Source: an uncultured Gemmatimonadaceae bacterium (lineage in GTDB: Bacteria; Gemmatimonadota; Gemmatimonadetes; Gemmatimonadales; Gemmatimonadaceae). From it: a stretch of DNA of 64,000 nt. The translations under genes were made by a program, and so were the position numbers. The stretch spans positions 862,609-926,608 of the forward strand of contig CAVZBP010000003.1 in the NCBI GenBank assembly GCA_963773545.1. The letters are read 5' to 3'. Under the pieces are notes generated by a model, which saw only the letters and a program-made list of their open reading frames with translations, did not search any database and had not been told where the DNA came from. Position 1 is the first letter of the stretch, and every line of letters starts with the position of its first letter. Positions 1 through 47,642 of this stretch are shown here, piece by piece.

Positions 1-1414
1 CGCCCGTCGCGGTAGTGGGCGTCGGCGAGGTTCTTATGGAGTTGCGCAAGGGTGCTGTCCTCGTGCAGGCCGGCTTCCGCCGCGCGCTGCGCCCCGGCGT
101 GGTCCCCGCTGCGCTCGAGAATGACCGCCCGCGTGTTGTAGAGGACCGCGGCGTGGGGATGCAGGTCGCAGCCCTCTGTGGCCAGCGCCAGCGCGCGGTC
201 GAGATCGCCCGTCAGCGCCGCCGTGAGCGCCGCGTAGTGGAACCACGCGGCCGACGGCGGCTGGCGTCCCCAGAGCGCGCGCGCCGACGCGAGGACGCGG
301 TCGGCCGTCTCGGTGTCGCCGCGCTTGAGCGCGAGCACGCCCAGGGACGTGCGGACGCGCGCATCGTCCCCGCCGCCACGCTGGAGCGCCTCCTCCAGCG
401 CCCGTTGCGCATCCGCATAGCGACCGAGCTGTTCGAGCGCGTACCCCAGGTTGTGGAACACCGCCGGACGCGCGCCCGCTTGCGCCCCCGCCAGTTCGAG
501 GAGTTCCACCGCCTCGTCCCACTGGTGGCGGCGCATCGCGACCAGCGCCAGATAGAAGCGGGCCTGCACATCCCCGTCGCGCAGCTCGATCACCCGGCGA
601 AATTCGCGCAACGCCTCGTCCAGCATGCCCGTCTTGTAGAACGCCACGCCCAGGTTGCGGTGCTCCTCCACCCGCGCTTCCTTCACCGTGGCGTCCGCCG
701 GCTTGGACTTGCCCACGCGCTGCAGGAAGCCCGCCGACACGAGCCCATAGAGCGCCTTCGCAACGGAGAACTCCGCCAGCCCGGACGCGTCGACGAGCGC
801 GGTGACGTCGCGCTCGCCGTCCACCAACGGAAGCACCTGCTCCTGCTCCGGCGTGAGTGGCGCGTCGCTGTGGGCCACCCGCTCGCGATCGACACCGAAG
901 ATGAGATCGAAGCTCGGAATCTTCTTCTCGATCAGGCTCCATTCGTCCACCCGCCGCGCGCCCTCCAGCAGCAGCGCGTCGGGGCTGATCGACACCACGA
1001 AGTCGCGGGCGTCGGGGCGCACCTCCGCATCGAAGCTGAACGTGCCCTGCGTCCAGGTGAACAGGTAGTAGACCGCCTCCTCGATCTGGACGCGGATGTA
1101 CTGGTGCAGCTCCTCACGCGACAAGATCTCGCGCTCGATGAGAATCTCACCGAGCCGCATGTCACGGTGGGTGTTCTGCATCTGCACCGCCTCGTCGAGC
1201 TCCTGCTGTGTGATGACCCCGTTCTTCACCAGGACGTCGCCCAACCGATCGCGGCGATTGACGATCGACGCGTACGAGATGCGGCCCCGATCGAAGTAGA
1301 CGTAGCCGAAGCTGCCCCGGTCCGCCACGCTGAGGCATCCGGTCTTCTGCCCCATGGACAGGAGCTGGAGCACGTCGGGGAGACTGGCCTCGCGGAGGCT
1401 GCCCTTGATGGCCA
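1..1414 (-). CDS. DUF4388 domain + TPR repeat protein (partial; C-terminus beyond left window edge)
   Basis: Minus-strand ORF absent from the track because it has no stop inside the window. My translation from ATG at ~1414 begins MAIKGSLREASLPDVLQLLSMGQKTGCLSV..., which fits the DUF4388 consensus (as I recall Pfam PF14332); downstream are TPR-like helices. It is a paralog of the 5702..6847 protein. The start abuts the stop of the upstream DnaA-like gene. Confidence 0.75.
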
Positions 1415-3346
1415 TTAGCGCATCTCCTCGCTGGCCAAACCGCTCAGCTCGGGCCACTCCCACACCACCTTCTCGCGATCGAGAAAGAACGCGTCGACCC
1501 CCACCGCGCCCTCGGCGAGCGTGGGCGCGGCGGCAAGCGTGGTGCCTTCCAGCTCGGCCTGCGCGAAGGCAGGAGTAATGGCGACATCCGAGATCGCCGC
1601 GGCCTGCCGCAGCCGCGCGACCGTGCACAGCAATTCGGCCACGCTCGCGGTGGGGCGCGCGGCGAGGTAGGTGATCAGTTCTTCGTCCGGCGCCGCGTCG
1701 TCGCTGGCCAGCGCGCGCGCGAGAACGCGCGTGCGCAACTCGCGATCGGGCGCGCGGATCTCGACCACCAGCCCGCCGCCAAACCGGGAGCGGAGGCGCT
1801 CGTCCACTCCGTCCAACGCCTTGGGCGGTCGGTCGCCCGCGAGGACGATCTGCTTCCCATCGGCGTACAAGCTGTTGAACAGGTGAAACAGCTCCTCCTG
1901 CGCGCGTTCCGTTCCGGCACAATCCTGCACGTCGTCCAGCAGCAACGCGTCCACGTCGCGATAGCGCGCGCGCCACCGTTCGATCGCGCCCTCCTGCAGG
2001 GCCGCGATCAGCTCCTCCACGAACTGACCAGCCGCGAGGCACGCCACGCGCATGGCGCCGCCACGGGTCGCCACCAGCTCGCTCGCCATGGAGTGGATGA
2101 GGTGCGATTTGCCCACGCCCGCCGGCCCGTGGATGTAGAGCGGGTTGTACTTGCGCCCGGGTTCTTCCACCACCTCATCCGCGGCGTGCACGGCGAGCTG
2201 ATTGGAGGGACCGACCTCCAGGGTGGCGCGGGCGAACTCGGCCCTCGGCTCCGGCCACGCCGACCTCCCGGACACCAGGCGCGCCACCGTCTCCTCCGCT
2301 TCATCCACCCGATCGGGATCGCGCATCAGCTCGCTGCGCGCGAGCGACTCATCCAGCCCCTCGACGTCCGCGGACAGCCGCCGCAACCGGTCGACATCGT
2401 GCTCGAAGTGCGCGAGCAGGTCGTCGACGCCCGGATCCTCTGCGCGCTCGAGCGCCTGCTCCAGGCGATCCACGCGGTAGCCCAGCTGCTGCCATTCGGT
2501 GATGGCCTCGCCCACCCGCGCGCGCCAGGGCGCGATGTTCTCGGCCACGGCGCCGGCCAGCTCGTGCAGGAAGCTCGAGAACTCGTCTCCCACCGACGCA
2601 CTCACCGCCGGGGTGAGTGTCTTACTCGCGTCCAGGCGCTCACCGAGCAACGCCCGCACGTTTCCGCGCGTCACCCGCTGCTGTCCGAGTGTGGAGCAGG
2701 CGACGAGCCGATTGAGCGCGCCTTGCAGTTCGCGCACGTTGCTGAACCCGAGTCGCGCCACCTCCTCGACGACGCCCGGCTCGAACTCCACGCTGCGCTC
2801 CTGACACTTGCGGCGCAGGATCGCCACGCGCGTTTCGTAGTCGGGTGGGGCGATGTCGACGATCAGGCCGCCGGAAAAACGCGTGATGAGGCGCTCGTCG
2901 AGCTCGGCGATCTCCGCCGGCGGCCGGTCGCTCGTGAGCACGACCTGGCGACCGGTCCGCTGCAACGCGTTGAACAGGCGCAGCATCTCACTCTGCGTCT
3001 CGCGATGCCCGGCGAGGAACTGCACATCGTCCAATAGCAGCATGTCAATGGTGTCGAAGCGCTGCTTGAAACCGTCGCTCCGGCCGGCCGAGATCGCCTC
3101 ATGCAGTTGTTCCACGAACTCGTCGAGCGTGGCGTAGTAGATCGTCAGCTCGGGCGTCAACTGGTGGGCCATCTGTCCGATGGCCGTCAACAGGTGCGTC
3201 TTGCCGAGCCCCGACCCGCTGTACAGAAACAACGGGTTGTACGCCGCCCCCGGTGCGTGCGCGACCGCGTTCGCCGCCGCCACCGCCAACCGATTGGCGG
3301 CGCCGACCACGAAATTCTCGAACCGGTAGCGCTCGTCGAGACTCAC
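1415..3346 (-). CDS. tandem DnaA-like AAA+ ATPase domain protein (two DnaA domain-III-like modules; no DnaA N-terminal domain and no DNA-binding domain IV)
   Basis: 643 aa. The N-terminus FENFVVGAANRLAVAAANAVAHAPGAAYNPLFLYSGSGLGKTHLL matches the DnaA/Hda domain III signature with a Walker A motif. A second copy sits near residue 380: NQLAVHAADEVVEEPGRKYNPLYIHGPAGVGKSHLIHSM. Both have Walker B-like LLLDDVQ motifs. The start overlaps the mglA stop (GTGA). Confidence 0.8.
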   Translation of the reverse strand: MSLDERYRFENFVVGAANRLAVAAANAVAHAPGAAYNPLFLYSGSGLGKTHLLTAIGQMAHQLTPELTIYYATLDEFVEQLHEAISAGRSDGFKQRFDTIDMLLLDDVQFLAGHRETQSEMLRLFNALQRTGRQVVLTSDRPPAEIAELDERLITRFSGGLIVDIAPPDYETRVAILRRKCQERSVEFEPGVVEEVARLGFSNVRELQGALNRLVACSTLGQQRVTRGNVRALLGERLDASKTLTPAVSASVGDEFSSFLHELAGAVAENIAPWRARVGEAITEWQQLGYRVDRLEQALERAEDPGVDDLLAHFEHDVDRLRRLSADVEGLDESLARSELMRDPDRVDEAEETVARLVSGRSAWPEPRAEFARATLEVGPSNQLAVHAADEVVEEPGRKYNPLYIHGPAGVGKSHLIHSMASELVATRGGAMRVACLAAGQFVEELIAALQEGAIERWRARYRDVDALLLDDVQDCAGTERAQEELFHLFNSLYADGKQIVLAGDRPPKALDGVDERLRSRFGGGLVVEIRAPDRELRTRVLARALASDDAAPDEELITYLAARPTASVAELLCTVARLRQAAAISDVAITPAFAQAELEGTTLAAAPTLAEGAVGVDAFFLDREKVVWEWPELSGLASEEMR

Positions 3347-3960
3347 CGGGCCAGCGCCTCCGTGACGGGGGCGTTGGCGCTCAGACGCTTCAGCACGAAC
3401 TCCGAGATGCCGCGCAACGTCTCGAACACCCCGGTGCCGTGCAGCGCATCGGCGGCAAAGGAAGGAACCTCGCGGAAGTTCAGTGCGTCCTCGAGCTCCG
3501 GCACGTCCAGAATGAGATCCGGCGGGAGATCGCGCTTGTTGTACTGGATCACGAGCGGAATGCCACGCACGTCCACACCCTGCTCCGCGAGGTTGGCGTG
3601 CAAGTCCTGCATGCTCTCAATGTTTTCGTCCCGCTGCCGTGTCTGACTGTCAGCCACGAACACCACGCCATCCGCACCCTGCAGCACGAGCTTGCGCGTG
3701 GTGTGATAGTAGACCTGTCCCGGGACCGTGTAGAGTTGCAGGCGCGTGGTGAATCCCGAGATTGCCCCCAGGTCGAGCGGCAGGAAGTCGAAGAACAGGG
3801 TCCGGTCCGTCTGCGTGGCCAGCGACACCATGTTGCCGCGGCGTGCGTCCGGCACCCGTTGATAGATGTAGTGCAAGTTGGTCGTCTTGCCCGACCGCCC
3901 TGGGCCGTAGTAGACGATCTTGCAGGTGATCTCGCGGGTGGCGTAGTTGACGAGCGACAC
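3343..3960 (-). CDS. mglA: MglA, Ras-like small GTPase (mutual gliding motility protein A family)
   Basis: 205 aa. The sequence is near-collinear with M. xanthus MglA as I recall it. It has a P-loop YYGPGRSGKTT, the MglA-specific switch-II TVPGQ (in place of DxxGQ), VFVADSQ, and NKRD. The start is GTG, 7 nt after the mglB TAA stop. Confidence 0.9.
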   Translation of the reverse strand: MSLVNYATREITCKIVYYGPGRSGKTTNLHYIYQRVPDARRGNMVSLATQTDRTLFFDFLPLDLGAISGFTTRLQLYTVPGQVYYHTTRKLVLQGADGVVFVADSQTRQRDENIESMQDLHANLAEQGVDVRGIPLVIQYNKRDLPPDLILDVPELEDALNFREVPSFAADALHGTGVFETLRGISEFVLKRLSANAPVTEALAR

Positions 3961-3967
3961 GGCGGGC

Positions 3968-4477
3968 TTAGGGAGAGGGTGGCAAGGGACGGCCGCTCAC
4001 GTCGAGCCGAGGGGCCCGTCCGAAGAGCGCCGCGAGACTGCGATCAAGCTCGCGCTCGAAGTCAGCAGCGAGCGTGGGCGCGGGGGTCGCGGCGCCGGGT
4101 GATGCGGCGGCCAGGCGCTCGCGGAATTCGCGGAAGTACAGCTGCACCAGCCCCAGCGAACTCGCGCGATCGAACACGGCCAGCAACACATACCGTTCGT
4201 GCGCGGTGGGCACGTCGGCCATGAAGATTTGCCGCTCGCGGCCGGCGTGGTGCAGTTCTCCAAACGGCACGCCGCCCACCTCGCGCCCCAGCGCGCCGGC
4301 GGAGGCCGAGATACCGGCGGCGAGTGCGCATGCGGCCATGACGTCCACCGCCCGCGTGAACCCGTGCTGCCCCAGCACCTGCCCGCTGGGATGCAACAGC
4401 AGGGCGAACAGGATGTTCGCCTCTTCCACGAACGGGCGCAGCGGCGCCTCGACCCAGTCCGCCGCGACGGTCGTCAC
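3968..4477 (-). CDS. mglB: MglB, roadblock/LC7 domain GAP for MglA
   Basis: This is the C-terminal 170 aa of track ORF 3968..4840. The start is the GTG of VTTVAADWVEAPL..., which overlaps the TGA of the upstream roadblock gene (GTGA). The core FTRAVDVMAACALAAGISASAGALGREVGGVPFGELHHAGRERQIFMADVPTAHERYVLLAVFDRASSLGLVQLYF aligns with the MglB roadblock fold and its conserved xLGLVxL motif. Confidence 0.75.
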   Translation of the reverse strand: MTTVAADWVEAPLRPFVEEANILFALLLHPSGQVLGQHGFTRAVDVMAACALAAGISASAGALGREVGGVPFGELHHAGRERQIFMADVPTAHERYVLLAVFDRASSLGLVQLYFREFRERLAAASPGAATPAPTLAADFERELDRSLAALFGRAPRLDVSGRPLPPSP

Positions 4478-4822
4478 GCGAGCGCTCCGGCCGCACGCAG
4501 CATGGTGGAGCGGATGAGCCCCACGTTCGCGCCCGTTTCGGCCAGGACCGCGAGCACCAGTTCGCCGTGGCCGAGCACGCACAGAATGCCCGCGCGACGC
4601 GTCGAGCCGGAGAAAGGACACGGCGCCGAGCCCCGCCGCGCCGCTGGCCCATCGTGAGCGGCGATGCAGCGCCGCAGCCAGTGCGGCCAGCGCCGGTCCG
4701 TCCACGCGCTCCTGCAGCAGGGCGTCGACCACGATGCCATCCTCCTCCCCGGCCACGAGGCAGCCGAGGACGCCGCGATGCCGCGCCAGCGGCTCGAGCA
4801 GGGTGGCAAAGGCCGATTTCAT
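4474..4822 (-). pseudogene. MglB-like roadblock/LC7 paralog interrupted by a single-base frameshift (or a sequencing error in a GGG run)
   Basis: The N-terminal part, MKSAFATLLEPLARHRGVLGCLVAGEEDGIVVDALLQERVDGPALAALAAALHRRSRWASGAAGLGAVSFLRLDASRG, is in the frame of ORF 3968..4840. The C-terminal part, ILCVLGHGELVLAVLAETGANVGLIRSTMLRAAGALA*, is in the frame of ORF 4474..4809. The joined sequence gives a clean roadblock domain: F-x8-L-x3-VG-x4-VLVV...LGLVR. The shift maps to about 4589-4594, one extra nucleotide in a GGG run. The ATG overlaps the stop of the upstream TPR-roadblock gene (ATGA). Confidence 0.55.
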
Positions 4823-5709
4823 GCGTCCGCTCCCAGCCAATCAGTCGCTCGCGCACGGCACCGCTCCAGGAGGCGCCGCACATACCCTAACGGGGTGTCG
4901 CGCGACGACAGCGTGACCAGCAGCGCCCCTTCTGCTACTGGCGCCAGCGCCACTGCCGCCTCATCGGTTTCGCACACCACGAGGTGCCACTCGCCCAGCG
5001 CGAGGTGCTTGACTGCACGTTCGGCTTCGTCGCGCACCCCTGACAATTCGACGCCGACTTCCTGGGACGCGTCACGCCCGTCCATCGTGGGATACTGCCC
5101 CGCCGCGACGAGCCCATCGGCGTCGAGCAGCACCACGGCATGGGCGCCGCCCGCCACGAGGTCGGCAAACAACTCGCGCGCGTCGCCCATGGGCGACGGG
5201 TGGCCATTCTCGGCAGCAGCGCCATGCCCGTTCACCGCCACCCACGCGTTTCCGCCGCCGTCGGCCGGTGGCGGACCGTTCCCGGGCAGCGCACCCGCTT
5301 CCTTGCCGTCGCTGCCCCGCCGCACCATGGCGAGCGCGGTGGCGATCGACTCGTCGTCCGGCTCCATCGACGCCGCCTCGGCGAGCAAGCGCTCGGCCGC
5401 ACGGACGTCGCCTTGCTTGAAGAGGATGTAACCGAGCCCCTTGCGCGCTCCCAGGTGCGTCGGGGCAAGGCGCAGCACCGTTTCCCACGCCTCGCGCGCG
5501 CGGTCGAGCGCGCCGCGATCCACGCAGACGCGCGCCAGGAGATCGTGCGCCTCCGGGCTCGCCTCGTGGCGCTGGACGCCGCGCTCGGCGACCTTGAGCG
5601 CCACGTCCAGATCCGCGCGGCGCCGCAGCGCTTCCGCCAGACGCAGGTAGACCGGGCTGCCGGGATCACGCGCCAGCTCATCGCTCAATCGGCGGATCTC
5701 GTCAGCCAT
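4819..5709 (-). CDS. TPR repeat protein with C-terminal roadblock/LC7-like domain
   Basis: 296 aa. The N-terminal half is TPR-like (LRLAEALRRRADLDVALKVAERGVQRHEASPEAHDLLARVCV...). The C-terminal roughly 110 aa, AVVLLDADGLVAAGQYP...LALGEWHLVVCETDEAAVALAPVAEGALLVTLSSRDTPLGYVRRLLE, has the roadblock pattern. The ATG overlaps the stop of the DUF4388 gene (ATGGCTGA). Confidence 0.7.
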   Translation of the reverse strand: MADEIRRLSDELARDPGSPVYLRLAEALRRRADLDVALKVAERGVQRHEASPEAHDLLARVCVDRGALDRAREAWETVLRLAPTHLGARKGLGYILFKQGDVRAAERLLAEAASMEPDDESIATALAMVRRGSDGKEAGALPGNGPPPADGGGNAWVAVNGHGAAAENGHPSPMGDARELFADLVAGGAHAVVLLDADGLVAAGQYPTMDGRDASQEVGVELSGVRDEAERAVKHLALGEWHLVVCETDEAAVALAPVAEGALLVTLSSRDTPLGYVRRLLERCRARATDWLGADA

Positions 5710-6847
5710 CGCTGTGCTCCGTGAGCAGCGTACGCAGGCGGCCCGCGGCGTCGGCGGCCGCGCGGACGCGCTGCGCGTCGGGGGCCGCCGGCATCATGCG
5801 CAGATAGCGGTTCCAGCTATTGAGCGCCTCCTCGAACTGCCCGCGCGCGGCGGCCGCGTAGCCAAGCTCGAGGTGCACATCCGCGTTAAGCGTGTCGAGC
5901 TGACGCGCGCGGTGCAACTCCTCCACCGCGTCTCCGTGACGGCCGGCACGCGCCATGGCGCGCGCCAGCGTGAGTCGCGCCTCGGCCGACTGAGGGTCGG
6001 CCACGATGGCCTGGCGCGCCGCCATCATCGCGCCCTCCGCGTCACCGGCGCGCAACGCCCGCGTGGCCTGCTCCAGATGCGGCTCGGCATCGCTCGCGAT
6101 GCCGCCGCGCGCCTGCGCCGCGCCGTCCGGCTCGAACAGCTCCACCACGCCCGTGGAGAGCAGGCCATAGACGATGCGCGCCACCTCGAATTCGCTGCGC
6201 GCCAGATTCGCGGCAATGGCGCGCAGATCGCGGCTGCCATCGATCTCGGCGAGGACCGCCCACTCGTTGGGGAGCAGATCGAGCAGCGTGGGATGGTCGT
6301 CGCTCACCGGGGCGAGCACCGGAACGACACCCAGGTGACGGACCCGTCCCTCGATCCGCGACCATTCGTCGATCCGCCGCGCGCCTTCCATGAGCAGCGA
6401 TTCGGTGGAGATGCGGCTCATCGCCTCGGCGGGGATGTCGCCGAGCTGTCCCTCCTCGAACGAGAAGTATCCCTCGCTCCACGACGTGAGCTCGAAGACC
6501 ACTTCTTCCACCTGGAAGCGCACCTGCCGCTCCAATTCGCGTGGCGTAATCGCCCGCATCGCGATCAGCACTTCTCCCAGCTTGCGCGTGTCGCCACGCT
6601 CCTGCTGCTGGCGCGCGCGGAGCAGATCGCCCTCCGCGATGCGGCCCGAGCGCACGAGCAACTGGCCCAGCGGATGCGGGTTGCTCCGGATGGACGCGTA
6701 CACGACAGCCCCGCCGTCGAAGTACACGGTGCCTTGATTGTCACGCAGCGCGGACGTCACGGTGAGCGTGCCGGTCTTCCGACTCAGGTCGAGCAACTGG
6801 AACACGTCGTGGATGCCCAGTTCGCGGAGCGGTCCCTCGATCGCCAC
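5702..6847 (-). CDS. DUF4388 domain + TPR repeat protein
   Basis: The true start is probably a GTG (V58 of track ORF 5702..7018). It is preceded by AGGAGG and sits 2 nt after the TGA of the upstream TPR gene. The N-terminus VAIEGPLRELGIHDVFQLLDLSRKTGTLTVTSALRDNQGTVYFDGGAVVYA fits DUF4388. A middle region is conserved with the left-edge paralog, and the C-terminus is TPR. The track residues upstream of V58 are R/P-rich junk. Confidence 0.75.
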   Translation of the reverse strand: MAIEGPLRELGIHDVFQLLDLSRKTGTLTVTSALRDNQGTVYFDGGAVVYASIRSNPHPLGQLLVRSGRIAEGDLLRARQQQERGDTRKLGEVLIAMRAITPRELERQVRFQVEEVVFELTSWSEGYFSFEEGQLGDIPAEAMSRISTESLLMEGARRIDEWSRIEGRVRHLGVVPVLAPVSDDHPTLLDLLPNEWAVLAEIDGSRDLRAIAANLARSEFEVARIVYGLLSTGVVELFEPDGAAQARGGIASDAEPHLEQATRALRAGDAEGAMMAARQAIVADPQSAEARLTLARAMARAGRHGDAVEELHRARQLDTLNADVHLELGYAAAARGQFEEALNSWNRYLRMMPAAPDAQRVRAAADAAGRLRTLLTEHSDG

Positions 6848-6849
6848 GG

Positions 6850-9558
6850 TCAGTCCTCCTCGCGCGCGAAGATGCGCAGCAGGTCCGCGGCGGTGCGGGC
6901 GTCGCGGCGTGCACGCCGCGCGAACTCGCAGCCGGGATCGATCTCGACCACGCGGTTCCAGCGGGCGATCGCCTCGCGGTAGCGATGCCGGCGCATCATG
7001 AGCACGCCCATGACCCACAGCGCGCCCGCGTGGTCGGGCGACAGGCGCAGGATGCGCACGGCGGCGATCATCGCATCCTCGTGACGCCGGAGGTCCACCA
7101 GGATCTCGGCCACCAGCAGCAACGCGTCGAGGTTGTACGGATCCCGTTTGAGCAGATCGACGAGCGGCAGCAGTGCGTCGCGCAGCCGGTTGAAGCGGCG
7201 CCGCACCTCCGCCAGGGCCATCGTGGCCTGCACGTACGTGGGCACGGCGTCCAGCGCCGCGATCAGCGCGGCCTCGGCGCCGTCACCGTCCCCTTCGTCG
7301 GCCAGCAGCGTCGCAAGCTCGTACTGGACGGCGGCGAATTCGTGGTCGAGTTGGAGCGCGCCGCGGTAGGCCTCCTTGGCTCCTTCCACGTCGCCGAGGG
7401 CGCGCGCGACATCACCCACCTGCTTGAGGACGTCGGCACGATCGGGGGCCAGGCGCCGCGCCTCGAGCAACAGTCCATACGCGGAATCCGCGTCACCCGA
7501 CTCGGCTCGCGCACGGGCCACCAGCAGCATGGTCTCGACGCCCGACGGGTCCGCGGCCAGCAGCTGCTCGGCCACGCCGCGCGCTTCGGGGTATCGTCCC
7601 AGGCGGAGCAACGCCATCGTCTCGCCACTCATCGCGCGCGGGGAAATGCCGTTCATGCTGCGCGCCGTGCGGTAGCGCTCCAGCGCCTCGCCAAAGAGCC
7701 CCTGACGCGAGAAGATGTCGCCCTGCAGGATGAGCCCTTCAATGGCGTCGGCCCCGCGCGCGAGCACGCGACTCACCTCGGCGGCCGCGCGATCCAGCAG
7801 CCCCTTGGCCAGGTAGTCGGCCGCCATGGAATACGGGCTGACGCCGGCGCGCGGCACGGGACGGGGAAGCGGGGGCTCCTCGCGGAGTTCGCCGAACAGC
7901 GTGTCGAGCGAACTGGCATCGAACGCGAACGCCGGGACCTCGCTTCCGTCGGGCATGCGCTCGTCGCCACTCAGCGCCGGCGTCACCGACAGGTCGGGAT
8001 CCTCGTACTCCACGTCGATGGCCAGCTCGAACTTCTGCGGCACATAGTACGGGTCGAGGTCGAGCGCGCGCCGCGTCTCACGCAGCGCGCCGTCGAGATC
8101 GCCCAGATTGGACAGCGTGAAGCTCAGATTGTAGTGCGCCTCGGCGTACTGCGGCCGTGCCTCGATGGCTCGGCCAAAGGCGTTGCGCGCCTCGGCAAAT
8201 TCCTTGAACTCGGAGAGCACGAGGCCGATGCCGTTCCAGGCCACCGGATGTTCGGGCGCGGTCCGCAGCACCTGCTCGTACGCTTCTCGTCCCAGCGCGA
8301 GCTGACCCGCACGGACGAGCAGGAGCGCGAGGTTGAGCCACCCTTTGAGAAACCCGGGCTGCGCGGCGAGCGCCGTGCGGAAGGCAGTGACCGCGTCCTC
8401 CATGCGGCCCGTCTGCGACAGCGCCACGCCGAGGTTGTTCTGCGCCAAGACGTACGCCGGATCGAGCGCCAGGGCGCGCTCGTAGCTCGTGATGGCCTCG
8501 TCCAGCGCGCCGCTCTGGTGCAGCGCCACACCACGTTCGCACCACAGCTTGGGGCTGTCCGGCTGGAGGGCCAAGACGCGGTCATAGACCTCCACCGCCT
8601 GGCGCGGCTCGCGCCGGAACAGGTGCACCTCGGCCATGGCCTGGAGCACGAGCGGTTCGTCTTCACCGCGCTCGAGCGCCAGACGGTATTCGCCCAGCGC
8701 TTCGGCGTAGTAGCCTTTTTGCCGGAAGGCGAGCCCCAGATTGTAATGGGCGAGCGCGCCGCCCGCGGCCACATGCATCGCACGCCGATCCCGTTCCGCG
8801 CGCTCGGGGACCAGCTCCTCGTAGGTGGCCGCGTTGTAGCGGTCGAGGGACAGGTTCGCCTGCGCGCGCGAGAGCGAGGGGTTGAGCTGCATGGCGCGCG
8901 CGGTTGCTTCGCGTGCTTCCTCGTGCCGTCCCATGTCGCCCAGAACGAACCCCTTGAGATAGTGCGCGTCGGGGTTGTCCGGCCCGAGCTGGATGGACCG
9001 CTCCAGCGCGGCGAGAGCCTCGTCATTCAGCCCGCGATTGTAGCACACCTCGCCAATGGAGAAGTGCACGAGCGGACTGGCGGGATCGCACGCGAGAGCG
9101 CGCTCGAACCACTGCTGCGACACCTCGAGGTTGCCGTTGGCCTTCTCAGCGAGCCCCAGCTGTACCAGCGCCCCGACATCGTTGGGATGGCGCTCGAGCA
9201 GCCGCGTGAACTCGGCGACGGCGTCCGCCGTCTCGCCCAGCAGCGCGTACGCGCGCCCCAGTTCCCAGTGCGCATCCCGGTCATCGGGATGCTGGCGGAC
9301 GCGCTCCTGCAGCTCGGCGACGCGGCGGTGATAGAACCCGGTCCGGAAGTACGCGATCTCGAGATTGCGCTGGGCCACCTGCATCTTGGGGTCCAGCTCG
9401 AGCGCGCGCGAGAACGCGGCGACGGCTTCCTCGGAGAGTCCCTTGTTGTAGTACAGGACGCCGAGGTTGTTATGCGCCCCCGCATCGGACGGATCGATCC
9501 GGCGGGCGAACGACCGCAGGATCTCGAGGTCACGTTCGGATGCGAGGGACTGCGCCAT
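6850..9558 (-). CDS. large TPR repeat protein (~20 TPR units)
   Basis: Track ORF 6850..10188 with the N-terminal 210 aa discarded as an R/H-rich antisense artefact. The start is taken at MAQSLASERDLEILRSF, 3 nt after the cheC-like stop. Canonical TPR motifs occur throughout (AHNNLGVLYYNKGLSEEAVAAFSRALELDP..., AHYNLGLAFRQKGYYAEALGEYRLAL...). Confidence 0.75.
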   Translation of the reverse strand: MAQSLASERDLEILRSFARRIDPSDAGAHNNLGVLYYNKGLSEEAVAAFSRALELDPKMQVAQRNLEIAYFRTGFYHRRVAELQERVRQHPDDRDAHWELGRAYALLGETADAVAEFTRLLERHPNDVGALVQLGLAEKANGNLEVSQQWFERALACDPASPLVHFSIGEVCYNRGLNDEALAALERSIQLGPDNPDAHYLKGFVLGDMGRHEEAREATARAMQLNPSLSRAQANLSLDRYNAATYEELVPERAERDRRAMHVAAGGALAHYNLGLAFRQKGYYAEALGEYRLALERGEDEPLVLQAMAEVHLFRREPRQAVEVYDRVLALQPDSPKLWCERGVALHQSGALDEAITSYERALALDPAYVLAQNNLGVALSQTGRMEDAVTAFRTALAAQPGFLKGWLNLALLLVRAGQLALGREAYEQVLRTAPEHPVAWNGIGLVLSEFKEFAEARNAFGRAIEARPQYAEAHYNLSFTLSNLGDLDGALRETRRALDLDPYYVPQKFELAIDVEYEDPDLSVTPALSGDERMPDGSEVPAFAFDASSLDTLFGELREEPPLPRPVPRAGVSPYSMAADYLAKGLLDRAAAEVSRVLARGADAIEGLILQGDIFSRQGLFGEALERYRTARSMNGISPRAMSGETMALLRLGRYPEARGVAEQLLAADPSGVETMLLVARARAESGDADSAYGLLLEARRLAPDRADVLKQVGDVARALGDVEGAKEAYRGALQLDHEFAAVQYELATLLADEGDGDGAEAALIAALDAVPTYVQATMALAEVRRRFNRLRDALLPLVDLLKRDPYNLDALLLVAEILVDLRRHEDAMIAAVRILRLSPDHAGALWVMGVLMMRRHRYREAIARWNRVVEIDPGCEFARRARRDARTAADLLRIFAREED

Positions 9559-9563
9559 CGGAA

Positions 9564-10184
9564 CTACTCCACCCGGACGGCGCGCAGGATCACTCGCAGC
9601 GAGGCCAGGTCGGGAAGCAGCAGGAAGAAGCCGCGCAGACGCTCCCCGGCTTCCTGCAGCAGGAACTCCGTTTCCACGGCGAACACGCAGTCGCGATCGG
9701 TGCCGAACTGCAGGTACGCCGTGCTCAGCACGGCCGCGGACATGTCCACCGCCAGGCTGGGCGGCGACGGCAGCAGCATGAGGCCCAGAAACTCGCTGAG
9801 CGCGTTCATGTACGCGCCACTCAGGATGTTCCCTGCTTCCTTGATGGCCGACTGCTCCAACTCTCCCAGGTCGACGCTCTCCGACGGCGGCCGGCGCAGC
9901 ATGAGCGACGCCAGGCGTTTGGCCGTTGGATGCGGGAAGACGAGCAACGTGCGGCCGGTGAGGTCGCCGAGCATGTGCATGAGCACGGCCGCGATCGGTT
10001 CCTCGCTGTCGGCGATCTGCGTGGGCAGCTCCTCCAGCGAGCAGATCGTGATCGTGGGCACGTTGATCATGATCCGGCTGGCCGTCATGTGGGACAGCGC
10101 CGTGGCCGCGTGACCCGCGCCGATGTTCGCGACCTCGCGCAGCGCATCGAGCTGGATCGCCTTGAGGGACAGTAGATCGTTCAT
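9564..10184 (-). CDS. CheC/CheX-family chemotaxis phosphatase-like protein
   Basis: LDALREVANIGAGHAATALSHMT matches the CheC signature D/E-x-L-x-E-x-x-N-I-x-x-G-x-A-A-T-A-L-S. A second half-site is IKEAGNILSGAYMNALSEFLG. The start is assigned to M11 (MNDLL); the alternative 10214 would overlap cheA by 20 nt. Confidence 0.7.
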   Translation of the reverse strand: MNDLLSLKAIQLDALREVANIGAGHAATALSHMTASRIMINVPTITICSLEELPTQIADSEEPIAAVLMHMLGDLTGRTLLVFPHPTAKRLASLMLRRPPSESVDLGELEQSAIKEAGNILSGAYMNALSEFLGLMLLPSPPSLAVDMSAAVLSTAYLQFGTDRDCVFAVETEFLLQEAGERLRGFFLLLPDLASLRVILRAVRVE

Positions 10185-10194
10185 GCACACCCCA

Positions 10195-12144
10195 TTAGAG
10201 GAGGGACCCGACATCCACGATCAGCGCCGGCGCCCCGTCGGACAGAATCGTCGCCCCGCTGAACAGCGCCGTGCTCTCGCGGACGCCGTCGAACTGCTTC
10301 ACCACGATGTCCTGCTGTCCGGCCAGGTCGTCCACCACGAGCCCCGCGCGGCGATCGCCGATTTCCAGCACGATCACGTGCTGCCGGAGATCGGGGCGCG
10401 GCGCGAGCTGCACGAGCGTGCGGAACGGAATGAGCGGGAGCACCTCGTCGCGCAGGACGAGGACATCGCGCCCCTTCACGCTCCGCACAGACGACGACTG
10501 CAGGTCGACCGTTTCATTGATGTGCGTCATCGGCACCGCGTACGTCTCGTCGTCCACGCGCGCCAGGAGCGCGCGGACGATGGCCAGCGTGAGCGGGAGG
10601 CGAACGGTGACGGTCGTTCCCGCTCCGGGGGTGGAGCGGATCTCCACCGTGCCGCCCATGGACCGCACGCGGTTGTGCACGGCGTCGATCCCCACCCCGC
10701 GGCCGGACAGATCCGACACCTGGTCGGCGGTGGAGAAGCCCGGACGTGCGATGAGCCGCACCAATTCCTCGTCGGTCAGCTCGCCGCGCCCGGCATCCAC
10801 CAGTCCCAGATCACGCGCCTTTTCGAGGACACGGTCGGCGGCGATGCCCTGCCCGTCGTCCGCCACACGGATGACCACCGATGACCGCTCGCGCGATGCG
10901 CTCAACGTCAGCCGCCCCAGCGGCGGCTTGCCGCACGCGGTGCGCGTGTCCGGCATCTCGATGCCGTGGTCGATCGCGTTCCGCAGCAGGTGCACGATGG
11001 GATCACCGATCTCGTCCAGCATGGAGCGATCGAGTTCGATGTCCTTGCCGATCACCGAAAACTCGATCTGTTTTCCCAGACCGCGCGCGGCGTCACGGAC
11101 CAGACGCGGAAAACGATCGAACACGTGCGACACCGGCACCATCCGGCACAGCATGATCTCGTCCTGCAGCTCCGTGATCAGCCGCGACGCCTGCGCCAGC
11201 GTGTCATCGAGCACCGCGTCCTCGGTGCCCGCGCAGAGCTGCAGCAGTCGTCCGCGGGCGATGACCAGCTCGCCGATCATGTTCATGAGCGCATCCAGCC
11301 GCTCGAGATCGATCCGCACATGCCGATGGACGCGGGAACGCGTACCGTCGGCCGGTGTGGGGGCAGCCGGTGCGGGGGCCGCTTCGCTCGTGACCTCGAG
11401 TTGCTCCACATCGCCCATTCCGCGCAGCGCTTCGTCGATCGCGGCGCGGCTCGCTGCCGTGTCGAGACGGAGCGCGAATTCCCGATCGAACTCCTCCGCC
11501 TGCAGCGCGTCGACCGGCGGGATGACGGAGCTCACGGTGCCCAGCGTCTCGGCCTTGCGCACGATCAACAACGCGCGCGCGCCGCGCAGCGCGGTCGCGG
11601 CCGCCAGACGCACGCGTACGAGCCAGCGCGAAGCCGCCGGGGCCGCGGGGCCAGACGCCGGCGCGGGCGCGTCGGGGAAGGTGCCGCGCGCACCAGGCGC
11701 CGCCGCGTGCGCTTGCGCCACCGCTGCCGCGTACTCGGCCGTGGCGGACGGAAGGTCGTCGTCAGGCGCGCCGCCCAGCGTGCGGAGATGTTCCACCAGC
11801 GCGGCGACGTCCACCTCCTGCGCCCGCCCCTGCACCGACAGCTCGACCGCCGCTTCCAGGGCGTCGGCCGCGGCAAACAGCACGTCGAGGATCTCCGGCG
11901 TGACGAGCTGCGCGCCCTTGCGGACGCGGTCGAGCAGCGTCTCCAGCTCGTGCGTCAGCTCGGCGACGGCGGTATAGCCCATCGTCGCGCTCATCCCCTT
12001 CACCGTGTGCACGGCACGGAAAATCCCCCCCACAGGCTCGGCCGCGCCGGGGGCGCGCTCGAGCTCCAGGAGGAGGTGATTGATCGCCGAAAGATGCTCT
12101 CGGCTCTCAGTCAGGAAGAGGTCGGCGTAGCGGGAGATATCCAT
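10195..12144 (-). CDS. cheA: chemotaxis histidine kinase CheA (HPt - dimerisation - HATPase_c - CheW-like; no receiver domain)
   Basis: The start is at MDISRYADLFLTESREHLSAINHLLLELE, an HPt domain with the phosphorylatable His in AVHTVKGMSATMG. It has HATPase motifs (HLLRNAIDHGIE, DDGQGI, GRGVGIDAV) and a C-terminal CheW-like domain. The first 28 track residues are junk. Confidence 0.9.
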   Translation of the reverse strand: MDISRYADLFLTESREHLSAINHLLLELERAPGAAEPVGGIFRAVHTVKGMSATMGYTAVAELTHELETLLDRVRKGAQLVTPEILDVLFAAADALEAAVELSVQGRAQEVDVAALVEHLRTLGGAPDDDLPSATAEYAAAVAQAHAAAPGARGTFPDAPAPASGPAAPAASRWLVRVRLAAATALRGARALLIVRKAETLGTVSSVIPPVDALQAEEFDREFALRLDTAASRAAIDEALRGMGDVEQLEVTSEAAPAPAAPTPADGTRSRVHRHVRIDLERLDALMNMIGELVIARGRLLQLCAGTEDAVLDDTLAQASRLITELQDEIMLCRMVPVSHVFDRFPRLVRDAARGLGKQIEFSVIGKDIELDRSMLDEIGDPIVHLLRNAIDHGIEMPDTRTACGKPPLGRLTLSASRERSSVVIRVADDGQGIAADRVLEKARDLGLVDAGRGELTDEELVRLIARPGFSTADQVSDLSGRGVGIDAVHNRVRSMGGTVEIRSTPGAGTTVTVRLPLTLAIVRALLARVDDETYAVPMTHINETVDLQSSSVRSVKGRDVLVLRDEVLPLIPFRTLVQLAPRPDLRQHVIVLEIGDRRAGLVVDDLAGQQDIVVKQFDGVRESTALFSGATILSDGAPALIVDVGSLL

Positions 12145-12193
12145 GGTTGGCGGAGGCGTGAAATGCCCGGCCCCGGCGGAGCGCGCGGGGAGG

Positions 12194-12556
12194 TTAGCCC
12201 AGCACCCGCTGCACCGCTTCCAGCACACGACTCGGCTGGAACGGCTTCACGACAAAATCCTTGGCACCAGCCTGGATGGCTTCCACCACGAGCGCCTGCT
12301 GCCCCATGGCACTGCACATGAGGATCTTTGCGTTTGCGTCGAAGCGCGTGATCTCACGCACCGCGTCAATGCCGCCCATGTCGGGCATGACGATGTCCAT
12401 CGTGACCAGATCGGGGCGGAGTTGCCGGTACTTCTCGACCGCCTGCAGGCCCGTCTCGGCTTCGCCCACGATCTCGAAGCCCGACTGCTGCAGGATGTCG
12501 CCGATCATGGTGCGCATGAAGATCGCGTCGTCGCAGATCAGAACGGTGTGACTCAA
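12194..12556 (-). CDS. cheY: CheY-like single-domain response regulator
   Basis: 120 aa, VLICDDAIFMRTMIGDIL...LVTMDIVMPDMGGID...AKDFVVKPF. The start is TTG, preceded by GGAGGG 5-6 nt upstream. Confidence 0.9.
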   Translation of the reverse strand: MSHTVLICDDAIFMRTMIGDILQQSGFEIVGEAETGLQAVEKYRQLRPDLVTMDIVMPDMGGIDAVREITRFDANAKILMCSAMGQQALVVEAIQAGAKDFVVKPFQPSRVLEAVQRVLG

Positions 12557-12562
12557 CCTGCC

Positions 12563-12568
12563 CCTCCG
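12563..12568 (-). promoter_or_regulatory. Shine-Dalgarno (GGAGG) for cheY TTG start
   Basis: The mRNA reads ...aaccGGAGGggcaggTTGagtcac.... Coordinates are +-1. Confidence 0.45.
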
Positions 12569-12569
12569 G

Positions 12570-13049
12570 TTAGATCAGGACCTGCCTGATGAGTGCCTCG
12601 ATGTCCAACACCACGATCACCTGCTCCTCCAACTGCAGCAACGCGCGCACGGGGCCGTCGGGAACCATGTCGGCGCCTGCCTCCTCGGCCTCTGCCGTCA
12701 CATCGTGCACGTCCAACACCTCGTCCACGGCCAGCCCCACCCGCTTGCCTCCATGCTCCGCCATGAGCACCGAGGCCGACTCGCGGGCCGTGGATGCGAC
12801 GCCGAGCCGGACGCCCAAGTCCAGCACGGTCACGATCGAGCCGCGAACATTCACCAGCCCATCCACCCACGGCGGCGCGCCCGGCAACCGGGTGGCGCTG
12901 CGCCACGGGATGATCTCGGAAACCGTATCGACTTCCAGGCCGTACGACCGCCCATCCACGCGAAAGACCACAATGCGTCGCGGGCGGCGCTCGCCCACGA
13001 CGCCGCTCCCTTCGTGATCAGAGATCTCGAGTGTAGAAACCGAGGTCAT
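12570..13049 (-). CDS. cheW: chemotaxis coupling protein CheW
   Basis: RRIVVFRVDGRSYGLEVDTVSEII...VDGLVNVRGSIVTVLDLGVRLG is a typical CheW fold. The start is taken at MTSVSTLEISDHEG; the first 17 track residues are junk. It overlaps the 3' end of rluD by about 30 nt. Confidence 0.85.
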   Translation of the reverse strand: MTSVSTLEISDHEGSGVVGERRPRRIVVFRVDGRSYGLEVDTVSEIIPWRSATRLPGAPPWVDGLVNVRGSIVTVLDLGVRLGVASTARESASVLMAEHGGKRVGLAVDEVLDVHDVTAEAEEAGADMVPDGPVRALLQLEEQVIVVLDIEALIRQVLI

Positions 13050-14019
13050 CCAGCGGATCCGCGTGTGTGAACATGACGTCCGGGCCAGCCACCGCGGCAA
13101 GGCTCCCCACGAGATCCGTGGGCAGCTCCGACCGCACCTCGATCCGCGCTCCCGTTGCCGGATGCGGGAAGATCAGCCAGGCCGCGTGCAGGAAGTGCCG
13201 GCGCGGCGGCAGTGCCGCCAACCGACGCCCCCCTCCGCCACCATAGACATCGTCTCCGACTACCGGATGACCGATCGACGCGAGATGCACCCGAATCTGA
13301 TGCGTCCGCCCGGTGTGGAGAGCGGCACGAAGGAGGTCCGTTGAGTCAAACCGTGCGAGGCGAACGAAGTCCGTTCGTGCTCCTCTTCCGCTACTGACGA
13401 TTGCCATACGCTTTCGGTCTCGCGGGTCCCGGCCTACCGGTCGGTCGACGGTCACCCGATCCCCATCCAGATGCCCCCACACCAGGGCGGCATAACGTCG
13501 GCTGATGCGTCGCGCCGCGAGGGCGGCCCCCAGCCGGCGGTGCGCCAGATCCGTCTTGGCCACCAAGATCAGTCCGGAGGTATCCTTGTCCAGGCGATGG
13601 ACGATCCCGGGCCGCTCGGCGGCACCACCCTCGGCCAGCGGGCCGCCGCGACCGCGCAGCGCGTTGACCAGCGTGCCCGACCAGTGCCCCGGGGCAGGAT
13701 GGACCACCATCCCTGCCGGCTTGTTTACCACGAGAACGTGCTCGTCCTCGTAGCGGACGTCGAGCGCGATCTGTTCGGCCACCACCGCGCGGTGGACCGG
13801 GGGTGGAAGGCGCACCGTCACGGTGACACCCGCGCGCGGCCGCGATCCAGCCTTCTCGTGCACCCCATCCACCAGCACGCACCCGGTGGCGATGAGCGTG
13901 GCCGCCCGAGAGCGCGAAAGGTCCAGCCCCCGGGCCACCAGCGTGTCCAGTCGCTCCCGGTTGCCGTGCGGGACGGCGAAGACGCGCTGCTCGCCGCCCG
14001 CGTCAGCCGCGCTCACCAT
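13018..14019 (-). CDS. rluD: 23S rRNA pseudouridine synthase, RluA/RluD family
   Basis: S4-like N-terminus, catalytic HRLDKDTSGLILVAKT, and HTGRTHQIRVHLASIGHPVVGD. Confidence 0.85.
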   Translation of the reverse strand: MVSAADAGGEQRVFAVPHGNRERLDTLVARGLDLSRSRAATLIATGCVLVDGVHEKAGSRPRAGVTVTVRLPPPVHRAVVAEQIALDVRYEDEHVLVVNKPAGMVVHPAPGHWSGTLVNALRGRGGPLAEGGAAERPGIVHRLDKDTSGLILVAKTDLAHRRLGAALAARRISRRYAALVWGHLDGDRVTVDRPVGRDPRDRKRMAIVSSGRGARTDFVRLARFDSTDLLRAALHTGRTHQIRVHLASIGHPVVGDDVYGGGGGRRLAALPPRRHFLHAAWLIFPHPATGARIEVRSELPTDLVGSLAAVAGPDVMFTHADPLDDLGFYTRDL

Positions 14020-14097
14020 GCGCGGCGTGGCGGTCGCGGAGGTGCGACTGGGACCGGGAGGTCGCGCGTGCAGGCGGCGAGCCGTGCGCGCGCGGCG

Positions 14098-34816: not shown

Positions 34817-36385
34817 TCAGTCGAGCAACTGGTAGGCAGGCAGCGTAAGGAACTCGACGAAGGTCTCCGTGAGCACCAGGTCGTCCAGCAGCGCCGCGGC
34901 ATCGACAAAGCGCGACGGCGCATCACCGCGCGCCTCCTGCAACGCCGCGAGCTCCGACTGACGCATATCGCGGTAGCGCTCGGCGGTCATCGTGCCCCCG
35001 CCCGCGAGCGGCGCCCGTCGCACCACCCACTGCCACAACTGCGCGCGCGAAATCTCGGCCGTGGCGGTGTCTTCCATGAGGTTGTTGATCGCGACCGCGC
35101 CCGACCCGCGGAGCCAGGCCTCCAGGTATTGCAAGGCGACGCTGATGTTGCTCCGCACGCCGTCCTCGGTGACCGTTCCGCCCGGGATGTGCACATCGCG
35201 AATCTGCTCCGCGGTGACGCGGACGTCCTCGCGCGTCCGGTCCTTCTGGTTGGGGCGGTCGCCCAGCACGCCATCGAACACCTCCTGTGCCACGGGGACG
35301 AGATCCGGGTGCGCGACCCACGTGCCGTCGAAACCGTCCGACGACTCGCGCCGCTTATCCTCCCGCACCTTGGCCAGCGCCACTTCCGTCACTGCTTCGT
35401 CCCGCCGATTCGGGATGAACGCCGCCATGCCGCCAATGGCGTGCGCGCCGCGTTGGTGGCAGGTGCGGACGAGCAGCTCCGTGTACGCGCGCATGAACGG
35501 CACCGTCATGGTCACCTGACCGCGGTCGGGAAAGCACACGTCCGGCCACCGGCGGAATTTCTTGATCGCGCTGAAGATGTAGTCCCAGCGGCCGGCGTTC
35601 AGTCCCGCGGCGTGCGCGCGCAGCTCGTAGAGGATCTCCTCCATCTCGAAGGCGGCGAGGATCGTCTCGATGAGCACGGTCGCGCGGATGGTGCCGCGGG
35701 GGATGCCCAGCGCGTCCTGCGCGGCGTCGAAGACGTCGTTCCAGAGGCGCGCCTCGAGATGGCTTTCCAGCTTGGGCAGGTAGAAATACGGGCCGAAGCC
35801 GCGCTCCTGTGCCGCCCGCGCGTTGTGGAAGAAGTACAACCCAAAATCGAACAGGCTGGCTGAGATCGGCGCGCCATCCACCCGCACGTGCTTCTCGGTG
35901 AGGTGCCATCCGCGCGGCCGCACGACGAGCGTCGCGATCCGTTCGTTCAGCGTGTATTCCCGTCCGTCGGGAGCCGTGAAGGCGAGCTCCCGTCGCACGG
36001 CGTCCATGAGATTGCTCTGCCCCTCCAGGACATTGCTCCAGGTGGGAGAGAGTGCATCCTCGAAGTCCGCCATGAACACCTTCGCCCCCGAATTGAGGGC
36101 GTTGATCATCATCTTGCGGTCCACCGGCCCGGTGATCTCGACGCGGCGATCCTGGAGCGCATCCGGCGTGGCGGCGACGCTCCATGCGCTGGAGCGCACG
36201 CCTTCCGTCTCCGCGAGGAACGCAGGGCGCTTGCCGGCATCGAGCTCGCGCTGGCGTTCATCCCGGTGGAGCAGCAGCTGCTCGCGCCGCGGATTGAACT
36301 GCCGGTGCAGGCGCGCGACGAAGTCCAGCGCGTCCGTGGTCAGTACGCGCGCGGCCGGCTCGGTCAGGCGCCCCGTGATCTGCAT
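34817..36385 (-). CDS. aceB: malate synthase A
   Basis: Collinear with MSA ([34 protein letters not shown]). The start is M46 of the track ORF. Confidence 0.9.
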
Positions 36386-36859
36386 CTGCTCCGACGTGCT
36401 CGCCCCCAACGCTGCCTCCCGTGTAGTCTGTGATAGATCCCTGTTCGTGGTGGCCGCTTGGCGTGATCGGGCCTCCGCTGGCGCTGGCCGTGCTGCACTC
36501 CGGCCCCGGATACGGTGCACGGCCGCACGCTGGCGAGCTCGTGGGAACTGGCCAGGGCCATGTCGAACCGGTTCCGGCCTTCCGGGGTGCTCCCAGCGCC
36601 AGCAGAGACCATGCAGCCCCCCTGTGGTGTAGCAAGAGCTGTGCTACCACCAGGGTGGGTTTTCTGCGCTGCGCCCCTCAATGGGCGACACGTAGACGGC
36701 GTGTGCCGCGAGGCACCCGTCATGCGTCCATGGTGCGGCAGACGTGCCACAGTCGCGTGCAACGGTTTGGCTCCCGGCACCGCCGTGGCGCGCTGGATGC
36801 AACCCTCCCTTTCTGATCGGCAGCGAATGGAACGAGGCCGTCACACGAGCGAGGAATCG

Positions 36860-37147
36860 ATGCGGGGATACCGCTTCTTTGAGGAATACACGACGCCGAC
36901 TCTCGAACACAGCCTCAGAAGCATCATCGCCGTCCAGACCATGGGACCTCGGTTCGTCCAGCAGGGCGGGGTCTGTGTGGGAGCGGTATGCGACGATGGT
37001 GCAGAGGCCCAGCGCAACGCCGGGAGCGCGGTCGGAATGCACATGGTCACAATGGAGTACTTGGGGACGCACTGCCGGACGGTCACGGAGGCGCGTGCGC
37101 GCGCGGTGGATCCGCGTCTATTCGAGTACCTCGACCGCATGGCCTGA
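36860..37147 (+). CDS. hypothetical protein (95 aa)
   Basis: Only the C-terminal part of track ORF 36515..37147 looks protein-like. The ATG is preceded by GAGGA. No homolog recognised. Confidence 0.3.
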   Translation: MRGYRFFEEYTTPTLEHSLRSIIAVQTMGPRFVQQGGVCVGAVCDDGAEAQRNAGSAVGMHMVTMEYLGTHCRTVTEARARAVDPRLFEYLDRMA

Positions 37148-47070: not shown

Positions 47071-47360
47071 GCGTGCAACTTAGCGCCCGGCGCGCTCGCG
47101 TGCAGGGGCGCCACGTGCATGGTGTCGTAAACTACAGCGTGATGGTGGTGACGCGCGAGGATCCGTGGCCGGCCGTCACCAGCGATCGGCGGTGAATCCG
47201 GCGCGCCGCGAACGAGGGCGTGACGTGATGCAGATCACCTTCGCGGCGCGCATCGGCGCGTGGCGGCGTGGCGTCCACCGCCGGCCCACGACGGTCGGCT
47301 CTGCGCACGGCCGCGCGCGGCCGCGCGCGGCCGATCTCGCGGTGCAGCGGCCGCCGCGCC

Positions 47361-47642
47361 CTACGGTTCCACGGATAGCTGGACCCGAAGCGGAACGTCG
47401 CTCGGGTGAAACTCGTTGAGGCGGGCAACCATGCGCGCGATGCGCTCGCAGATCGATGCGGCGTTCCCTTCACCATCCCCGCGCGCCCGCAGGGTCATGC
47501 CGCTCGCCCGGTCGCCCGGCAGAACGTCCAGCTCCGGAAATCCTCTTGTCAGTCGGTCCGGGAGGGAGTCGCACACCGCAGGCGCTCCCTGGAGCACCGA
47601 AATCCGAACCGTGCACGGTATCGCTGACTGGACTGCTGTCAT
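47361..47642 (-). CDS. hypothetical protein (93 aa)
   Basis: ATG with GGAG about 6 nt upstream; no homolog recognised. It lies in a roughly 1.1-kb gene-poor region. Confidence 0.25.
   Translation of the reverse strand: MTAVQSAIPCTVRISVLQGAPAVCDSLPDRLTRGFPELDVLPGDRASGMTLRARGDGEGNAASICERIARMVARLNEFHPSDVPLRVQLSVEP

Follow-up and report, generated by a model that had tools for sequence, protein, structure and literature searches.

The minus-strand gene that directly precedes mglB in this stretch of DNA is 349 nt long (3 x 116 + 1), from an ATG at 4822-4820 to a TGA at 4476-4474, and the question is what it encodes: an intact protein obscured by one surplus base, a chimera with MglB, or the remains of a gene. 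A complete 115-aa Roadblock/LC7 protein is obtained only after removal of one base between 4582 and 4591 on the minus strand. In the following, the window denotes the whole 64-kb stretch that was analysed. The features of the gene and of its operon are collected in Table 1.

Table 1. Coordinates of the Roadblock gene, its parts and the adjoining genes within the window.
Feature	Position	Strand	Evidence or remark
Roadblock/LC7 gene, 115 codons, stop and one extra base	4474..4822	-	PF03259 34.2 bits; 111 homologs; family HMM 148.8 bits when repaired
Codons 1-79 (MKSAF...RLDASRGH), same frame as mglB; helix 1, strands 1-2, helix 2 and strand 3 of the fold	4586..4822	-	HMM positions 1-80, 99.9 bits; secondary structure of the ortholog model
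10-nt interval GGGCATTCTG that must hold the extra base	4582..4591	-	sole gap in the L001/L002 alignment
Codons 80-115 and TGA (LCVLGHGELVLAVLAETGANVGLIRSTMLRAAGALA*), one base out of register with codons 1-79; strands 4-5 and C-terminal helix	4474..4584	-	HMM positions 76-114, 39.6 bits; ortholog model; dN/dS 0.17
Read-through ORF, 284 codons: Roadblock residues 1-79, 37 out-of-frame residues (SVRARPRRTGARGPGRNGRERGAHPLHHAACGRSARV) and the rest of MglB	3968..4822	-	
GGAG, Shine-Dalgarno-like motif, 7 nt upstream of the mglB GTG	4485..4488	-	L001 has GGAGG at the same place
mglB, 169 aa, GTG start	3968..4477	-	M. xanthus MglB 6izw_B, 7e-11; T. thermophilus 1j3w, 8e-7
mglA, 205-aa Ras-like GTPase	3343..3960	-	M. 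xanthus MglA, 2.4e-72; 95% identical to L001
643-aa protein with two tandem DnaA-type AAA+ modules	1415..3346	-	Bac_DnaA twice, 357.7 bits; TIGR00362
TPR and Roadblock-domain protein, 296 aa	4819..5709	-	TPR families; PF03259 at residues 187-267
PatA_N (DUF4388) and TPR protein, first gene of the conserved block	5702..6847	-	start 6847 chosen to match a 381-aa ortholog

A Roadblock domain read in two frames

The start codon of the gene overlaps the stop codon of the upstream TPR-Roadblock gene (TGA 4821-4819) as ATGA, and its TGA overlaps the start codon of mglB (GTG 4477-4475) as GTGA, the latter coupling being present as claimed in the preliminary description of this DNA. Between the two overlaps the coding text is divided. 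Frame A starts at the ATG and reads MKSAF...SFLRLDASRG(H); frame B reads (I)LCVLGHGELVLAVLAETGANVGLIRSTMLRAAGALA and ends at the TGA. The preliminary description had proposed that a 1-nt frameshift splits a complete Roadblock domain, and had assigned 84 codons to the N-terminal part. The split is borne out, as both halves match the family HMM in adjacent frames; the codon count is not, since the number of 84 is reached only by counting from a TTG at 4840, and 79 codons follow from the true ATG at 4822.

The general Pfam profile PF03259 assigns 34.2 bits to the repaired product and 35.5 bits to the literal product (cut-off 23), with the former spanning profile positions 4-91 of 91 and the latter just 4-74. 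Its score cannot tell the two products apart, and we therefore built a family-specific HMM from 80 orthologs, leaving out the window sequence. The two literal frames match model positions 1-80 and 76-114, respectively, whereas the repaired protein matches positions 1-114 in one piece, with 148.8 bits if a T is deleted and 145.9 bits if a G is deleted. The two-frame match is far beyond chance. A plot of GC content by codon position proved too noisy, as GC1 is also high, and was replaced by a Viterbi segmentation based on codon usage, which is independent of the HMM and switches frame at ~4596. The observed one-base frameshift in the Roadblock gene is thereby confirmed.

The position of the extra base is narrowly bounded. 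Gly78 is found in 80/80 orthologs and Cys81 in 76/80, which brackets the shift to 4582-4591. The DNA alignment with the closest ortholog (locus L001, 79% identity) contains a single gap, GGGCATTCTG versus GGCCA-CCTG, and places it at the TT of 4585/4586. Deletion of a T results in His79, a residue found in 12 of the 80 orthologs including the closest one, whereas deletion of a G from GGG results in Ile79, which is found in none (residue 79 is Arg in 63 orthologs, His in 12, Gly in 4 and Trp in 1). The family HMM likewise favours the T deletion over the G deletion, by 2.9 bits. Judged by these alignments, a T of the pair at 4585/4586 is the most probable surplus base. A break in the GGG, as put forward in the preliminary description, is not favoured, since the gap lies 3 nt away; one G of GGG 4589-4591 is a possible but weaker candidate.

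Read literally, the gene continues into its neighbour. The Roadblock frame and the mglB frame are identical because the GTGA overlap is combined with one inserted base, and the frame is open from the TTG at 4840 to 3968 (290 aa from 4840, 284 aa from the ATG at 4822). The 37-residue junction SVRARPRRTGARGPGRNGRERGAHPLHHAACGRSARV is rich in Arg, Gly and Pro, its final V is the GTG start codon of mglB read as Val, and the other frame in this place matches HMM positions 76-114. Within the genes of the window, the same off-frame is free of stops over 38 codons in 75% of cases. Off-frame stops are scarce at high GC, and with such a proportion open the chimera is expected by chance and constitutes no evidence of a selected fusion.

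According to a structural model of an ortholog, described below, the shift coincides with the beginning of strand 4 in the Roadblock fold. If the shift is real, the model predicts that strands 4-5 and the C-terminal helix are lost and that the domain could not fold. The GGAG motif at 4485-4488 could let mglB start on its own even with a real frameshift.

The 115-aa family and its probable role

The repaired 115-aa protein has 111 database homologs with lengths of 94-140 aa, most of them spanning 95-100% of the query. The best homolog is exactly 115 aa long and 78% identical. Fusion proteins are absent from the 111 homologs, none of which exceeds 140 aa. A scan of species-representative genomes provided 80 loci from Gemmatimonadaceae or Gemmatimonadota, and in 82/82 fetched loci, which comprise these together with L001 and L002 (80 distinct), the gene consists of one single-frame match of 114-125 aa that ends in a stop. 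The intact ortholog of about 115 aa that the preliminary description suggested looking for in relatives hence exists in 111/111 protein matches and 80/80 genomic loci. The gene order is near-constant, namely TPR-Roadblock, Roadblock, MglB, MglA and tandem DnaA-type ATPase: among loci with room for the respective neighbour, MglB lies directly downstream of the Roadblock gene in 76 of 77, MglA lies downstream in all 73, and the TPR-Roadblock gene lies directly upstream in 72 of 75. Next after mglA, almost every one of the 80 related loci has the gene of the tandem DnaA-type ATPase. The closest locus shares both the 4-nt overlaps and the flanking che genes. The stretch 4474-4822 is thus shown to be the ortholog of a 115-aa single-domain Roadblock/LC7 protein conserved across the Gemmatimonadaceae.

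The repaired protein belongs to the Roadblock/LC7 family (PF03259), its 34.2 bits exceeding the gathering cut-off of 23. It had been described as a duplicated MglB, which the profile comparisons contradict. The family profile matches generic Roadblock proteins with E 2e-8 (7yh1 at 2.4e-8), as against E 0.24-0.37 for the solved MglB chains 6h5b, 6izw and 6hjm; an hhalign comparison of the family with the adjacent MglB results in E 0.047 and a probability of 1%, and an NCBIfam scan of the 115-aa protein matched no MglB model. The protein shares with MglB its place next to mglA, which lies at most 1.2 kb downstream in 73/73 loci with room, but does not share its length: Roadblock orthologs have 114-125 aa in the fetched loci, and the structural model ends with the core helix 100-114. 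By these profile matches, the gene resembles MglB at the superfamily level only, and represents an old, separately conserved Roadblock/LC7 family that adjoins mglB. MglB proper is the 169-aa gene next to it. The product of the latter is 86% identical to its L001 ortholog and reaches 33 bits with the MglB model NF052242, below the cut-off of that model.

The fold was assessed on an AlphaFold2 model of an ortholog that is 79% identical to the window protein (P0001; pLDDT 93.2, pTM 0.86), the model's sequence being that of the ortholog and not of the window protein itself. The model consists of helix 6-13, strands 18-25 and 31-36, helix 42-63, strands 70-75, 78-85 and 88-94, and helix 100-114, and contains the five-stranded alpha-beta-beta-alpha-beta-beta-beta fold. 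In a Foldseek comparison it superimposes on Asgard Roadblock dimers, Streptomyces Roadblock/LC7, LAMTOR2 and the MglB core with TM 0.83-0.90, and the closest solved structures among the matches listed are Roadblock dimers.

Several known systems are related to the protein to different degrees. Single-domain Roadblock/LC7 proteins (9jue and 7yh1 from Asgard archaea, 3kye from Streptomyces, LAMTOR2/p14) share the size of ~115-125 aa, the order helix-strand-strand-helix-strand-strand-strand-helix seen in the ortholog model, and TM values of 0.83-0.90. They differ in that sequence identity amounts to 17-22% only, and in that the gene described here has a fixed place in an mglB-mglA operon, itself surrounded by a che cluster, and is interrupted in the window by a 1-nt frame break. 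MglB (M. xanthus 6izw/6h5b/6hjm, T. thermophilus 1j3w/3t12) has the same fold, with TM ~0.84 on the core, and is likewise coupled to mglA, but comprises ~160-170 aa with a long C-terminal extension that the 115-aa protein does not have. CvnB of the Streptomyces conservons (3leq) is also encoded by a Roadblock gene beside an MglA-family GTPase and a signalling module, and the family profile has a weak match to cvnB5 (E 0.008). In the classification of MglA proteins, conservons fall into Group 2, and a histidine kinase is among their components (PMC4316618), whereas the locus considered here combines a Group-1-type MglA with MglB and che genes.

It is known that Roadblock domains dimerise through helix 2 and the edge strand 3, and LAMTOR2 and LAMTOR3 pair through the same helix 2 and strand 3. 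By analogy, the 115-aa protein may pair via helix 2 and strand 3 with another Roadblock domain, candidate partners being MglB and the Roadblock domain with which the upstream TPR protein ends. As an accessory subunit, the 115-aa protein could tune the MglB GAP that acts on MglA, or direct it to its location, within a Che-linked polarity or motility module whose Che pathway is encoded on both sides. To our knowledge, mglC of M. xanthus is not located in the mglBA operon. As a small non-MglB protein of the Roadblock fold that acts beside the MglA/MglB switch, MglC is the best functional analogy for such an accessory subunit: in M. xanthus it is a Roadblock paralog that binds MglB and RomR (PMC4719450, PMC7949163, PMC10329633). 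No chain named MglC occurs among 41 profile matches at E up to 1, nor among the 50 Foldseek matches listed. Group 1 MglA occurs in Gemmatimonadetes, and in a small subset of Group 1 systems two MglB-family genes are coupled, with co-evolution with MglA noted for just one of them (Wuichet and Sogaard-Andersen, PMC4316618). The Roadblock-mglB-mglA locus fits this description of two-gene Group 1 systems. Based on these analogies, the MglA/MglB switch probably includes the intact protein as an accessory Roadblock subunit.

Origin of the extra base

Both halves of the gene are preserved to the same extent. Codons 1-79 have a dN/dS of 0.20 relative to the closest ortholog, and codons 80-115, taken in the repaired frame, one of 0.17, at a dS of 0.89. 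A relative-rate count with the other 79 orthologs as outgroup assigns 4 unique substitutions to the window sequence and 10 to L001; in the shifted part the numbers are 1 and 5. Neither half contains a second lesion, that is, a stop or a further indel. The out-of-frame C-terminal part shows no decay, and during practically all of the divergence ribosomes read it in the repaired frame. As purifying selection is equal in both halves, either the break arose very recently or the organism does not have it.

Two residues of the window protein stand out. Position 56 is Ser, as against Ala in all other orthologs that were compared (codon TCA versus GCG in L001), and position 58 is Trp, compared to Leu in 86% of orthologs (TGG versus CTG in L001). 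These changes at codons 56 and 58 (region 4652-4657 and 4646-4651) could be harmless lineage variation or a faint hint of relaxed constraint.

We consider it slightly better than an even bet that the extra base is an assembly or consensus artefact, and favour this reading over a genuine recent mutation. The artefact is favoured by the combination of a single lesion, a gene that is intact in 80 related species, a position in the middle of a translationally coupled operon, and selection that is not relaxed; true loss of a universally retained gene from inside a coupled operon would be unexpected in a natural population. Against an artefact stands the observation that the rest of the window is clean and does not resemble an indel-ridden assembly. 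The codon-usage HMM detects no other stop-less frame switch among ~58 coding segments, making this the sole frame break in 64 kb; further segment ends that were flagged adjoin low-scoring stretches or shadow frames, with a stop and a start nearby, and none of them is a second frameshift. The run concerned also has only 2 (TT) or 3 (GGG) bases, whereas consensus errors concentrate in long homopolymers, and Ser56 and Trp58 could hint at slightly relaxed constraint. If the base is an assembly or consensus indel, the organism would make the normal 115-aa protein.

The alternative is a genuine, very recent single-base insertion at the level of a strain or population, a serious possibility to which we assign somewhat less than an even chance. 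Such an insertion would destroy the Roadblock fold and result in the 284-aa chimera, with free MglB possibly still made from GGAG-GTG. The extra base is present in the sequence as given, the window holds no other frame break, the site is not a long homopolymer, and the window-specific changes A56S and L58W affect otherwise invariant or near-invariant positions; the absence of decay is equally expected of a young mutation. These points have to be weighed against a gene that is intact in 80 species-level relatives and 111 protein homologs, an operon so tightly coupled that real loss would disturb MglB too, and the lack of a second lesion or of a rise in dN/dS. Nor was an independent copy of the genome or species found: an exact look-up of the window MglA has none on record, the scan of species-representative genomes returned only relatives, and an exact-pattern metagenome scan across the junction, with either base count allowed, gave no match. 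If the base were real, the organism would lack an accessory subunit that is kept by every sampled relative, and its MglB would be N-terminally extended. It would then constitute a natural knockout for the role of the second Roadblock protein in the MglA/MglB switch.

We regard it as very unlikely that the extra base is real and also tolerated or selected, either bypassed by an unrecognised +1 recoding or because a chimera of half a Roadblock domain, linker and MglB is in use. A chimera in use would capture a pair of translationally coupled Roadblock genes in the course of fusing into one, and tolerance or selection of the base would imply that the stoichiometry or regulation of the MglB GAP has been rewired in this organism. 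A programmed +1 ribosomal frameshift or other recoding event that yields the full 115-aa protein, possibly alongside the read-through fusion, has an even smaller chance. In its favour, both halves are perfectly preserved and under selection, and a +1 shift at GGG-CAU-UCU would restore the protein; UCU and CAU may be considered minor codons in a genome of 69% GC. Yet the shift is found in 0/80 orthologous loci, nor does it occur in L002, so that nothing conserved exists that could have been selected. The site CGC GGG CAU UCU GUG contains no recognised +1 motif, judged by eye against known motifs: the A site holds neither a stop nor a known stall codon, the P-site codon is not a slippery one of the CUU type, and a clear internal Shine-Dalgarno sequence is absent. 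A long A/T run that would permit transcriptional slippage is also missing.

That the gene is an old, decaying pseudogene of a duplicated mglB is likewise hardly credible. Membership in the Roadblock superfamily and the position beside mglB would be in accordance with such an origin, but a long-standing pseudogene is expected to show relaxed selection or further lesions, whereas dN/dS is 0.17-0.20 in both halves, the window lineage has accumulated fewer unique changes than its relative (1 versus 5 in the shifted part), and there is one lesion only. Moreover, the family is distinct from MglB and conserved as a gene of its own in at least 80 species. The pseudogene was excluded on the E values of the MglB profile comparisons, the substitution counts and dN/dS. 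Finally, the chance that the 284/290-aa ORF (3968-4822/4840) is a real, conserved tandem-Roadblock protein without any frameshift is close to nil: the frame is indeed open from 4840 to 3968, but the end-to-end conservation considered in the preliminary description is refuted by the lengths of the homologs (none >140 aa), by two separate genes at every locus and by the family-HMM match to positions 76-114 in the other frame, on which grounds this candidate was rejected, and the out-of-frame Arg/Gly/Pro-rich junction, the codon-usage switch at ~4596 and the 75% expectation of such an open off-frame speak against it too.

The frame break has the appearance of other single-base frameshifts in genome records, with an extra base in a short run, otherwise perfect halves and intact orthologs. 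It is an ordinary single-base frameshift with nothing distinctive, be it artefact or mutation, and by itself teaches nothing new. For annotation, the locus should be recorded as one 115-aa Roadblock gene with a suspected indel, rather than as a tandem-Roadblock protein of 284-290 aa or as two fragments. The surrounding conserved operon is more interesting, as it combines three Roadblock-domain proteins, MglA, a tandem DnaA-type ATPase and flanking che genes.

The mglB-mglA operon and its chemosensory surroundings

All genes in the region 1415-6847 are located on the minus strand. The TPR-Roadblock protein upstream of the Roadblock gene has 296 aa, compared to 369 aa in L001 (8895-10004), with 63% identity between the two; the difference in length is presumed to reflect a Gly/Pro/Ala-rich linker of variable length that joins the TPR part to the Roadblock domain. 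At the other end of the block, the start of the 643-aa ATPase overlaps the stop of mglA, and the gene is part of the conserved operon. Its product scores 511 bits with TIGR00362, covering model positions 103-343 only, and has no match to DnaA domains I or IV in Pfam or NCBIfam. It is unusual for an MglA/MglB operon to have a DnaA-like ATPase as a fixed member, and we found no description of such a case.

Elsewhere in the window, Rfam and tRNA scans of the 64 kb gave no matches. Two stretches have no coding signal in the codon-usage segmentation. The first (~47130-48150, ~1 kb) contains only short overlapping ORFs, has no Rfam match, and is flanked by a citrate-synthase-like gene (45655-47070) and a small ORF with a signal peptide (48155-48499). 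The second (36521-37117, ~600 nt) is flanked by a malate-synthase-like gene (34817-36520) on one side and by the next minus-strand ORF on the other.

A search of the literature on this cluster in Gemmatimonas found nothing relevant. The MglA/MglB block lies inside a chemosensory cluster (1-14040 on the minus strand of the window, 1-20348 in L001) that is conserved in the closest relative. In L001, the order is CheW, response regulator, CheA, CheC/CheX, a 902-aa TPR protein, PatA_N/TPR, TPR-Roadblock and Roadblock, followed by MglB, MglA, tandem DnaA-type ATPase, PatA_N/TPR, CheR, CheD, CheB and two CheW. A Frz-like link from Che to MglA is thus hard-wired in one locus, together with three Roadblock-domain proteins.
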